IMG/VR virus record: IMGVR_UViG_3300027971_000001
Length of the DNA stretch: 64,000 nt
Source: a virus
Lineage: Duplodnaviria; Caudoviricetes
Strand: one strand, 5' to 3'
Part shown: piece after piece, positions 29,936 to 61,048 of the stretch
How the letters are laid out: each line of letters begins with the position of its first letter
How positions within the stretch are numbered: position 1 is the first letter of the stretch
Notes under the pieces: model-generated
What the model was told of the DNA's origin: nothing
Databases searched by the model: none
Seen by the model: only the letters and a program-made list of their open reading frames with translations
Translations under genes and position numbers: made by a program

Positions 29936-30085
29936 TTACTTTTTTAAATCCTTAACAGCGTTCTGTATACGATTTTGCAATTTAATATCCATAACAGCTT
30001 GAAGGGATTTTTTGGCACTAGAATAATCTTTTTCAGTAAGACACTTCAGAAAATTGTTAATCAAAGATTTTTGTTTAATGTCCAT
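29936..30085 (-). CDS. Small prohead core protein, gp67-like (49 aa); not in the ORF track
   Basis: Manual translation MDIKQKSLINNFLKCLTEKDYSSAKKSLQAVMDIKLQNRIQNAVKDLKK; GCTAAATA 9 nt upstream; fills the gp21-gp22 gap. Confidence 0.6.
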   Translation of the reverse strand: MDIKQKSLINNFLKCLTEKDYSSAKKSLQAVMDIKLQNRIQNAVKDLKK

Positions 30086-30097
30086 GTGTTTTTATAT

Positions 30098-30778
30098 TTA
30101 GCTCTTTGCACTCAATTTTCTAAAGAAAAGAACAACTTGTTCTTTCAAAAATGCTTCAACATCAGTACGAGGAAGGTTGAAAAGGGCAGATGTAAAGCTG
30201 TCATATATCTCTTCATAATGACCACTTTCTTTCAAAACAAACTGTTTACTTTCCAAAATACCATCAACAAAAGCTTTGGGGAACGACGGATCAGCAACAC
30301 AATCAATTGCAACCAAACGAAGATCGGAAACCTTGTTTATTCCGTTTGATCCTTCGCTAAGTTTTCCTAGAGCACGGCTGCTCATTCCTACCTTTACTCC
30401 GTCCTGTATCAAACTCTTAACAATCATTCCCATAGGAGTGCTGAGAACTTTGCTTTTACCGTAAAAAACATTTCCATCCTGACGAAGTTCAGTAACCATG
30501 TGACAAACACGTTCCAAATTAACTTCAGGAGTTTGAGGATGATTCAATTCACCCATGCTACGGTGATTCTTGATCATTTCATTTGTGTAACGACCAACTT
30601 CTTTGGTCATTTCTTCAAGATTGTAGATTCGACGATTACGATTGGCTTGTTCTGCCATCATGTAAGGACCTTTGATATAAAGAGTGGCCGGTTGGTTGGG
30701 ATTTTTTTCTTCCAACACGTATTCGAAATCATCATTAGATGCGGGACGTTCTACAATAAGTTTTAAACCATCATTCAT
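30098..30778 (-). CDS. gp21: Prohead protease
   Basis: YIKGPYMMAEQANRNRRIY, GELNHP, VCHMVTEL, GVKVGMSSRALG and DCVADPS. Confidence 0.96.
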   Translation of the reverse strand: MNDGLKLIVERPASNDDFEYVLEEKNPNQPATLYIKGPYMMAEQANRNRRIYNLEEMTKEVGRYTNEMIKNHRSMGELNHPQTPEVNLERVCHMVTELRQDGNVFYGKSKVLSTPMGMIVKSLIQDGVKVGMSSRALGKLSEGSNGINKVSDLRLVAIDCVADPSFPKAFVDGILESKQFVLKESGHYEEIYDSFTSALFNLPRTDVEAFLKEQVVLFFRKLSAKS

Positions 30779-59062: not shown

Positions 59063-59977
59063 TTAAAAGAAACCTTGGAAATTCGTAGGCAGATTGGCAG
59101 ATGTAAAGCTATTTCCATTTTGGAAAGGTGAAACATTCGGAATTGTTCCAGTACTGATTCGATTAATGATGTTTGGAAGCGGAATATACAGATTGGAATG
59201 CACAGTATAATTGGTATAAGTCCAATATGTGGCATATTTCTCATATTCAGTATCAGGAGAATAGGTTAAACTTTGGTCAACAAGTCCGGTTGGAACACAA
59301 TTATAGAATGTCCAAACTTTACGAGGTATTTGACTGACTTTTTGATAAGAACGTGTGTATTGAAGAATTGTTACAGTACATTTTATGTTGCGTATATCGT
59401 TATCACCACCAGGACGTGCCACAAAACCATAATGACTGGCCAATATTACCCATGGACGAATGACCATGTCCATAAAAGATGTGTTTGTTTCTCGAAATTC
59501 AATAACAAGAGGCAACCCAGAATACCCTGTTCGGTCACCAGCAATAAGACCTGGAACAAATCCTCGATTATTTTTGATTGCTAGATTCTGAACATCATAT
59601 TTTTCATTAGGAATATTAACTCCTTGAGCAAAAAGACAGCCCACCACCTTTTGGTAAAAGTAACTTGTTAATATTCCTTTTGGTTGAGAAACGTCCCAAC
59701 CTTTTTTGTCTCCGCCTACATATTCAAGATTTTGAATAATGTCGGATGAAATAGCCCTTGGATATGTATCTATCAAAACAACCCATTGACTGTTTAAAGG
59801 AATTGAACTGAACCAACTCTCCATTTGTGTCAGGAAATATTCCTGTGCACTGATAAGGGGAACACCTGGTATATTGAAACCGAAAAGACTGCTTACTTGT
59901 GGAGCAAAAAGAGGATTTGTGCCAGTGGCCAAACCACGAATATTACTTCCTAAACTGCGTATAGCATCTGTTACTGG
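59063..59977 (-). CDS. Tail-tube-like baseplate junction protein (gp54-like); start uncertain
   Basis: LVIEFRET, IRPW and WTFYNCVP resemble tube-fold proteins. Frame is open upstream of the TTG at 59932 to a TAA near 60007, with no ATG. Confidence 0.6.
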   Translation of the reverse strand, partial: PVTDAIRSLGSNIRGLATGTNPLFAPQVSSLFGFNIPGVPLISAQEYFLTQMESWFSSIPLNSQWVVLIDTYPRAISSDIIQNLEYVGGDKKGWDVSQPKGILTSYFYQKVVGCLFAQGVNIPNEKYDVQNLAIKNNRGFVPGLIAGDRTGYSGLPLVIEFRETNTSFMDMVIRPWVILASHYGFVARPGGDNDIRNIKCTVTILQYTRSYQKVSQIPRKVWTFYNCVPTGLVDQSLTYSPDTEYEKYATYWTYTNYTVHSNLYIPLPNIINRISTGTIPNVSPFQNGNSFTSANLPTNFQGFF

Positions 59978-59995
59978 ATTATTGATATGATTATC

Positions 59996-60016
59996 CTCCT
60001 CTAATATTTAGAGGAG
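59996..60016 (-). promoter_or_regulatory. 9-bp hairpin containing TAAATA and sequestering a GGAG(G) SD-like sequence
   Basis: CTCCTCTAA-TAT-TTAGAGGAG; the minus strand reads CTCCTCTAAATATTAGAGGAGG. Confidence 0.7.
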
Positions 60017-60020
60017 TATA

Positions 60021-60572
60021 TTAACTTTGATAGGTTCTGCGGAAATATTGATAAGCAACAGTGACTGTGAATGTTACGAATTCACCACCATTGGTAATAT
60101 CATATTCCAGAGGTCCAACATTACGAGGAGAAACACCGACCAACTGATATTGCGAAACGCGATTCAATTGGTTGTCTAATTGAACCAAATCAATGACGGC
60201 TGTTTGCTTGGCGGCAAAATAGTTACCAGTGCTTGTGACATCATCAAAAACATCTCGTGTCCAATCTTCAAACTTTTGACGAAGATTGCTCTTTTGATCG
60301 CAATAAAATTCCATTGCATAAGCTTCGGAGCCAGGATATTTTGCACTACCAGGAATATGGAAATCCAATCCCATGTAAGGAACTGTTACTTCAGTGATTT
60401 CACGGGCAGGAAGTGAAGCGGTACGAACATAAACCAAATCATCTTCGTTCCAAACTTGGCTGCTTGAGTCACCCGCATTAATATTAATAACACGGAAATT
60501 AAATTTACGTGAAAAATCACGTTCAGTTACTATACGGTAAAAATTCTGAATTGTTTGTTGTGTGGCTGCCAT
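60021..60572 (-). CDS. gp19: Tail tube protein
   Basis: RTASLPAREITEVTVPYMG...IPG, FEDW, VDLVQLD, GPLEYD and FTVTVAYQYF. Confidence 0.9.
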   Translation of the reverse strand: MAATQQTIQNFYRIVTERDFSRKFNFRVININAGDSSSQVWNEDDLVYVRTASLPAREITEVTVPYMGLDFHIPGSAKYPGSEAYAMEFYCDQKSNLRQKFEDWTRDVFDDVTSTGNYFAAKQTAVIDLVQLDNQLNRVSQYQLVGVSPRNVGPLEYDITNGGEFVTFTVTVAYQYFRRTYQS

Positions 60573-60582
60573 ATATTATTAT

Positions 60583-60981
60583 TTATTCTAAAGTTAACAA
60601 ATACTTTAATTTATTTAGTTCTGCAACGATTTCTTCTACAATATTTTGTGCATCGGTGTCATTTGCATTTAAGATTGGACATTCTTTATTTGTTAAAATT
60701 CCTATATATTGATTTATTTTTGCCAAAATATTGTCATTAGAATATGGCTCTATAGTCAAATTTATGGGTTTATACTCGTAACTACGATAACGACCTAGTA
60801 AAGCTTCCACCAATTTATCAAAAGCTTTTGCTAAATCTTTTCCTATTTTATCAAACGCTTCGTGTTGGGCAAAGCTAAAAGTTTGCCAATGAAACAACTT
60901 TAACTGGGCACTGCATTCCAAAGCAAGAGTTATAATATATGAAGGATCGTAACTTTGTTGGATTTTAATTACTTTTATCAC
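60583..60981 (-). CDS. Ferritin-like four-helix protein (Dps-related, DUF5856-like)
   Basis: QLKLFHWQTFSFAQHEAFD...DKLVEALLGRY...EEIVAELNKLKYLLTL; GTG start 5 nt after TATAAATA. Confidence 0.8.
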   Translation of the reverse strand: MIKVIKIQQSYDPSYIITLALECSAQLKLFHWQTFSFAQHEAFDKIGKDLAKAFDKLVEALLGRYRSYEYKPINLTIEPYSNDNILAKINQYIGILTNKECPILNANDTDAQNIVEEIVAELNKLKYLLTLE

Positions 60982-60986
60982 GTTTA

Positions 60987-60994
60987 TATTTATA
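60987..60994 (-). promoter_or_regulatory. T4-type late promoter TATAAATA
   Basis: Abuts the gp18 terminator; 5 nt before GTG 60981. Confidence 0.75.
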
Positions 60995-60997
60995 ACA

Positions 60998-61028
60998 AAA
61001 CACCCCTCTTTCAATAAGAGGGGTGTTT
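60998..61028 (-). terminator. Intrinsic terminator after gp18
   Basis: 13-bp stem AAACACCCCTCTT/AAGAGGGGTGTTT with 5-nt loop, followed by TTGTT on the minus strand. Confidence 0.85.
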
Positions 61029-61048
61029 CATAATTTTATATATTATTA

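Follow-up and report, generated by a model that had tools for sequence, protein, structure and literature searches.

A hairpin with a putative late promoter and a candidate AUC start codon at the tail-tube initiator gene of an uncultured freshwater T4-like phage

How is a structural gene translated when its reading frame holds no canonical start codon where its protein should begin, and when the Shine-Dalgarno (SD) sequence in front of it is drawn into a hairpin? The question is raised by a minus-strand locus in a 64-kb stretch of DNA (the window, in what follows) from an uncultured freshwater T4-like phage, in which the gene for a second tube-like protein directly follows the tail tube gene. 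An earlier, sequence-only reading of the locus had proposed that a hairpin containing a late promoter hides the SD, and that this device, together with a non-canonical start that was probably ATC, throttles a low-copy tube initiator encoded immediately downstream of the abundant tube protein gp19. The comparative analysis reported here supports that interpretation: a promoter-in-hairpin arrangement of the T4 gene e/soc type and a near-cognate AUC start probably act together to keep the output of a gp54-like initiator low.

Layout of the locus

From the stop codon of the tube gene onward, the minus strand reads TAA(60023..60021)-TATA-CTCCTCTAA-ATA-TTAGAGGAG-G-ATAATCAT-ATC AAT AAT CCA GTA ACA GAT GCT. 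The gene upstream (60021..60572, minus strand, as are all the features described below unless a strand is given) encodes a gp19-type tail tube protein (PHROG 45, tail tube, E 4.7e-25), so the gp19 neighbour named in the sequence-only reading is indeed there, and it carries a AATAAATA motif of its own 7 nt upstream of its ATG. Four nucleotides past its stop lies the hairpin CTCCTCTAA-ATA-TTAGAGGAG (60016..59996), whose 5' arm, CTCCTCTAA (60008..60016), is an anti-SD, and whose 3' arm, TTAGAGGAG (59996..60004), bears most of the SD; both arms are defined by folding and covariation. The SD itself is GAGGAGG (59995..60001), with a GGAGG core that ends 8 nt 5' of an ATC codon (59984..59986). A CTAAATA motif resembling a late promoter (60005..60011) runs from the last part of the 5' arm through the loop.

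The same motif contains a TAA (60010..60008) that closes the initiator-gene frame eight codons upstream of the ATC. Beyond this stop the open frame runs ATA TTA GAG GAG GAT AAT CAT ATC, and reading on in frame meets no ATG, GTG or TTG before the TTG at 59932 (59930..59932), which is the start offered by the ORF finder. In these respects the sequence-only reading was accurate: it had described the absence of ATG or GTG ahead of that TTG, the 8-nt spacing between GGAGG and ATC, and an in-frame TAA near 60007. It had, however, placed the ATC at 59977, which is wrong by 9; the ATC occupies 59986..59984, and 59977 belongs to the CCA codon. Counted from the ATC, the coding sequence comprises 307 codons and a stop (59063..59986).

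Identity of the protein

The product of 59063..59986 is a gp54-like baseplate tail-tube junction protein, the tube initiator that had been proposed, as both profile and fold indicate. A profile built from 65 diverse relatives (profile A3) matches PDB 9ufn_C, "Baseplate tail-tube junction protein gp54", with an E-value of 6.4e-6; the match extends over only ~60 residues and is weak but specific. A profile of close relatives gave no PDB match, and no Pfam family matches the protein. The AF2 model computed from a 65-sequence alignment obtained by representative search reaches a pLDDT of 83.5 (53.6 from 21 close relatives alone), and in it the protein adopts the tail-tube (gp19/Hcp-like) fold. Foldseek aligns the model with the baseplate cup of the Klebsiella phage KP1 (9f4b_BQ, E 5e-9), with T4 5iv5_BG (E 1.6e-8) and with the T4 tube (5w5f, E 7.6e-6). 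PHROG 45, the tail tube family, matches 18 of 21 family members. The gene order is also that of a tail cluster: sheath and tube genes come first, then the initiator gene, and after it genes for two hub proteins (PF12322) and for the tape measure.

The probable start codon

Protein and locus searches recovered hundreds of relatives from aquatic metagenomes; in the cultured-phage collection neither the gene nor its region had a match, as DNA or as protein. Judged by these relatives, the conserved start of the gene is very probably an AUC, AUU or AUA codon, namely AUC 59986 in this phage. At the corresponding position, all 17 distinct relatives at 70–100% identity have ATT, ATC or ATA (ATH): ATT in 14, ATA in two separate lineages and ATC in this phage. 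In the protein tree these 17 distinct sequences form a single clade, the ATH clade (SH-aLRT 99), and every member has an SD (GGAGG or AAGGAG) 8–9 nt upstream of the ATH, across a spacer that varies in sequence. At 50–60% identity the homologous codon is GTG in 58 of 63 distant loci and ATG in four. In these relatives the N-terminus M/V-N-N-P begins exactly at the codon homologous to the ATC, where homologues starting M-N-N-P had been expected.

The alignments also show on which side of this codon the sequence is read as protein: the coding signature switches on exactly at the ATH. Over codons +1 to +17, third positions are variable in 16 of 17 cases and second positions in 5 of 17, and pairwise differences amount to 855 synonymous versus 554 non-synonymous. 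Over the five in-frame codons upstream of the ATH, the corresponding figures are 20 synonymous versus 440 non-synonymous, and one lineage (L167) has a 1-nt indel within them. It should be borne in mind that the set ATT/ATC/ATA is also what an ordinary isoleucine codon would give; what speaks against such a codon is confined to the stop upstream, the coding signal that is lost ahead of the ATH, and the homologues with GTG. The third position of the start codon has changed at least three times and never to G, but chance alone would give this with a probability of ~0.3, so that we do not count the missing ATG as evidence of selection. When the window was scanned for further ATH starts behind an SD, none appeared, leaving this as the sole case among ~52 genes.

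Several other ways of decoding the region were considered and rejected. For a phage-encoded initiator-like tRNA that would read AUH, no tRNA was found in the window or in the ATH-clade fragments, and the CAU-anticodon tRNA common to GTG-clade relatives is paired at 1:72 and has no GGG/CCC anticodon stem, which makes it a tRNA of the elongator or Ile2 type. Fusion to the tube protein by frameshift or readthrough is precluded by the two frames, which differ and are each closed by a stop (TAA 60023 and TAA 60010). The loop also offers an AUA in frame (60007), but no SD precedes it and the next eight codons are not conserved as protein.

As a separate observation on tRNAs, the conserved CAU-anticodon phage tRNA, which looks like an elongator-Met or Ile2 tRNA, lies at the ends of three ~160-kb GTG-clade contigs (L184, L185 and L186). 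Another CAU tRNA, in G006 (L187), resembles initiator tRNA in the GCGGGG at the start of its acceptor and has a possible 1:72 mismatch.

A hairpin over the SD

For a 35-nt stretch of the locus, folding gives a stem of 9 bp capped by a loop of 3 nt (-12.3 kcal/mol, z = -3.8 versus shuffles), the stem covering GAGGAG of the SD. In nearly all lineages the relatives form hairpins of -11 to -13 kcal/mol from arms of differing sequence: the SD variants GAGGAG, GGGGAG, GAAGGAG and GAAAGGA are matched by CTCCTC, TCCCC, CTCCTTC and TTTCTTTC, respectively. Among 16 distinct sequences, both partners have changed in five of the eight pairs scored, and pairing holds in 93.8% of cells (at most 67% in the slid-partner controls; 0/500 shuffles). 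The z-score and the compensatory changes together make the hairpin more than chance, and an SD-hiding hairpin, previously read off a single sequence, is thus a stable and covarying structure in nearly all lineages of the clade.

One variant departs from this pattern. On two contigs (L008:2969-3003 and L159) three stem pairs are broken (CTCGTC...CCGGAG) and the stem is lost (-2.4 kcal/mol), while the SD, the ATT and the spacing are kept. The hairpin is therefore dispensable at least in L008/L159, which provide a ready-made natural hairpin-minus comparison.

The late-promoter motif

Although both arms change, CTAAATATTA is invariant. CTAAATA is present in 17 of 17 ATH-clade sequences and also in the GTG-clade relatives, where it is kept without any hairpin. 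Within the window the motif is depleted (5 copies found versus 16.6 expected), and all four of its minus-strand copies precede gene starts, those of the sheath gene, the tube gene, the initiator gene and a small ORF. The shorter TAAATA ends 5–7 nt before the start of 12 genes in the window, where by our estimate ~0.1 would be expected.

In T4, roughly one turn of the helix separates the late box from +1 downstream of it. In the T4-like phage Aeh1 the late promoter is CTAAATA beginning at -12 (PMC1524935), and the motif described for cyanophage S-PM2 is NATAAATA (PMC2984593). The late promoter that had been claimed within the hairpin is thus borne out at the sequence level, in that CTAAATA is invariant and fits the published T4-family late-promoter motif. 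By Aeh1 and T4 promoter geometry, +1 would fall near 59999, inside the 3' arm, and a late RNA would start GGAGGAUAAUCAUAUC, with the 5' arm absent. A homologue of the late sigma factor gp55 (E about 1e-18) is encoded in three GTG-clade relatives of ~160 kb; searches of the 64-kb window (tblastn noise only) and of the available ATH-clade fragments did not find one. A terminator scan detects a strong terminator after the sheath gene (61021..61003) and none between the tube gene and the initiator gene, so that transcripts reading through from the tube gene should contain the complete hairpin.

Boxes of this kind recur along the window. The 12 starts with an NTAAATA box 5–7 nt upstream are 63412, 60572, 57381, 40797, 32935, 29895, 26770, 20781, 13282, 15073, 18902 and 10215, and an SD is usually absent from them; with T4/Aeh1 geometry, their late mRNAs would be leaderless or have a leader of 1–2 nt. 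For most of the gp54-like relatives, the distance from the end of the box to the GTG is exactly 5 nt, an arrangement that would give a leaderless GUG. The rare gp54-like relatives that bear an ATG (L081, L085, L087 and L092) form a weakly supported sister group of the ATH clade on the tree; three of them are extended by 4 codons at the N-terminus and have the box 5 nt ahead of the ATG, and the remaining one has a 10-nt leader.

Two further gene readings were noted in the window. At 60979-61035 (minus strand), the sheath terminator is intrinsic and bidirectional-looking, with the sequence ACACCCCTCTT-ATTGA-AAGAGGGGTGT + TTTTGTT, and it is followed by TATAAATA, 5 nt and the GTG at 60981. The DUF5856 gene probably starts at this GTG, and not at the TTG at 61014 given by the ORF finder, since the GTG has TATAAATA and 5 nt upstream and the TTG lies inside the terminator loop. 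In window 29937-30101 (minus strand) there is an unlisted small ORF of ~48 codons, whose ATG (30084) lies 10 nt beyond a CTAAATA, itself overlapping the stop codon of the gene at 30098..30778.

Proposed mechanism and its alternatives

We propose that expression of the initiator gene depends on which RNA carries it. On read-through RNA from the abundant tube gene, the SD would be paired with the anti-SD arm in the 9-bp hairpin, and such RNA would presumably be translationally silent for the initiator. The CTAAATA motif in the 5' arm and loop would start private transcripts, with a predicted +1 near 59999; these would have no 5' arm, and their SD would be free at the 5' end. On them, the strong GGAGG 8 nt upstream would serve AUC 59986, which by analogy with infC-type AUU starts would be read by initiator tRNA with a third-position mismatch. 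The net output would be small and fixed, ~6 copies per virion beside a tube protein present in ~138; the T4 virion has 6 copies of gp54 and 138 of gp19 (PMC3004832).

Most likely, then, three weak-expression devices are stacked at this gene: a near-cognate start, an SD occluded on the read-through message, and a private late promoter. The family-wide GTG makes the weak start an old trait of the initiator gene, and the alignments indicate that the ATH clade swapped "box + 5 nt + GTG" for a hairpin-wrapped "box + SD + 8 nt + ATH". The purpose appears to be stoichiometric throttling. The temporal logic of the T4 device is not directly transferable, because the upstream gene here is late, not early.

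That the upstream gene is itself late makes translational coupling an equally natural use of the same hairpin. Initiation at the SD and AUC would then need ribosomes that are finishing the tube gene: a ribosome at TAA 60023..60021 would cover and melt the lower stem 4 nt downstream, the SD would briefly be free, and a fixed small fraction of tube translation events would lead to initiator synthesis, with CTAAATA silent or secondary. The tube stop lies only 4–8 nt before the stem in every ATH-clade lineage, which makes coupling a serious alternative to the promoter-in-hairpin scheme or an additional mode beside it, and one that we hold to be possible rather than probable. It is helped by the lack of a terminator between the two genes and by the fact that, with both genes late, temporal gating is unneeded; re-initiation coupling is moreover an established setter of ratios, as in gene V–VII of M13 (PMC2268962). 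However, coupling leaves unexplained the invariant CTAAATATTA beside covarying arms, the retention of the motif in GTG-clade relatives that have no hairpin, and a similar cassette in cyanophage S-CAM1 (described below), which follows non-adjacent early genes and lies ~40 nt past the upstream stop. The two modes are compatible, and both can coexist.

It is unlikely that the hairpin governs the fate of the RNA instead, whether by weak attenuation or by forming the 3' end of most tube mRNAs through stabilisation or processing, so that the initiator would be limited by less downstream message rather than by a hidden SD. The hairpin does come directly after the stop of a highly expressed gene, and in bacteria stem-loops between cistrons are known to give the parts of an mRNA different stabilities. 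However, no U-tract follows it, and the terminator scan that detects the sheath terminator ignores it. In addition, its 3' arm is always the SD and its 5' arm follows all four SD variants, which indicates SD occlusion.

Two further alternatives concern the start codon and not the hairpin. A canonical start downstream, here the TTG at 59932, with the first 18 codons as an untranslated leader, is very improbable: gene callers shorten the relatives as the ORF finder shortens this gene (lengths 244–297), but the TTG has no SD ahead of it, as had been pointed out, and relatives have TTA, CTG or CTT in its place. Depending on the relative, the first canonical codon downstream is number 11, 18, 33, 41, 52 or 54, and since its position differs between them it cannot be the conserved start; codons 2–18, for their part, show purifying selection at the protein level and line up with the first residues of the homologues that start with GTG. 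Least credible of all, to the point that we set it aside, is a sequencing or assembly error or a decaying pseudogene in which an original ATG or GTG was lost and the gene broken, for although ATC and ATG are one base apart, the identical ATC recurs in six assemblies made independently from different samples (four contigs from IMG/VR, and two of ~200 kb from JGI), which answers the concern over a read error, 16 other distinct sequences have ATT or ATA, the ORF is intact and conserved throughout the clade, and the role of gp54 is essential in T4 (PMC3004832).

Implications

Very few natural non-canonical starts have been confirmed in bacteria and phages, and here comparative data alone fix an AUC/AUU/AUA start to a single codon of an essential structural gene. 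The clade offers a clean natural system for studying how the strengths of start codon and SD, the structure of the RNA and the placing of the promoter are balanced to set virion protein ratios. There is also a lesson for annotation, as standard gene callers cut 11–54 codons off the initiator gene in every clade member.

A broader and more tentative reading takes its basis from the NTAAATA box 5–7 nt before at least 12 starts in the window and 5 nt before most gp54-like GUG codons. It could be that the default late-gene design of this freshwater lineage is leaderless, and that one clade swapped a leaderless GUG for an SD-led, hairpin-gated AUH, the start codon being a selected stoichiometry dial; we regard this as conceivable but doubtful. 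As part of it, a weak start may have been retained on the initiator gene through more than 50% protein divergence. Near-cognate AUH starts are discriminated against by IF3, and if this reading were true, the AUH start would make the supply of initiator depend on how stringently IF3 acts in the infected cell.

Comparison with known systems

The hairpin-promoter device is already known, and AUU starts are known but very rare. What appears to be new is their combination, a clade-wide AUU/AUC/AUA start on an essential tail gene, derived from GUG and lying inside a hairpin-promoter cassette.

The protein itself resembles T4 gp54 (PDB 9ufn chain C, 5iv5) in its tube fold, in its profile-level match and in its place in a sheath-tube-hub-tape-measure cluster. 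It differs in that identity in structural alignments is only ~14%, in that Pfam is silent, and in that T4 gene 54 does not adjoin gene 19.

For the start codon, the nearest parallels are infC and pcnB of Escherichia coli, whose AUU codons are the only two confirmed non-canonical starts there (bioRxiv 10.1101/063800). As in those genes, an AUH codon behind a good SD would limit the output of a low-abundance protein. Unlike in infC and pcnB, three isoleucine codons interchange across one phage clade, they replaced an ancestral GUG, and no autoregulatory loop is evident. In T4, an internal AUU start in the baseplate gene 26 was reportedly described by Nivinskas et al. in 1992.

For the hairpin, the precedents that the sequence-only reading had cited are confirmed: in T4 e (lysozyme), soc, 49 and I-TevI, a hairpin sequesters the ribosome-binding site and a late promoter lies in its 5' strand (PMC3014915), and the same device is found in Aeh1 mobE and in metagenomic homing-endonuclease genes (PMC2677866). 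The present locus shares with the T4 genes the SD in the stem, the T4-family late box in the 5' arm or loop, from which it follows that a late transcript could not form the stem, and the T4-like phage background. The T4 precedents serve mainly temporal control. Here, in contrast, the upstream gene is itself a late structural gene, so that the role is likely to be ratio-setting and not delay, and the start is AUC/AUU/AUA and not AUG.

The cassette recurs outside this gene family. An exact scan for the pattern CTAAATATTAGRGGAGG found 36 viral contigs, ~20 of which carry unrelated genes; in these ~20 cases CCTCC(T) precedes the motif and an ATG follows 7–9 nt after GGAGG. The cyanophage form of the cassette is CCTCCT-CTAAATA-(T/C)TAG-GGGAGG + 7–9 nt + ATG, and the two downstream proteins that were searched against cultured phages have their relatives in T4-like cyanophages. 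In the cultured Synechococcus phage S-CAM1 (HQ634177.1; L147:1468-1503, the other cases being L111-L146), CCTCCT-CTAAATA-CTAG-GGGAGG-TTTTTTCGT-ATG stands ahead of SXBG_00153, downstream of gp41 and mazG. This design, in which 9 nt separate the cassette from the start codon, is nearly identical to that of the present locus. Unlike here, the start codon in S-CAM1 is ATG, the genes served are unrelated and of unknown function (PHROG 8438, 1462 and 3560), and the genes upstream, gp41 and mazG, are of early type. The recurrence of the hairpin-promoter cassette in cyanophages suggests that T4-like phages of aquatic habitats make wide use of the device known from T4 gene e.
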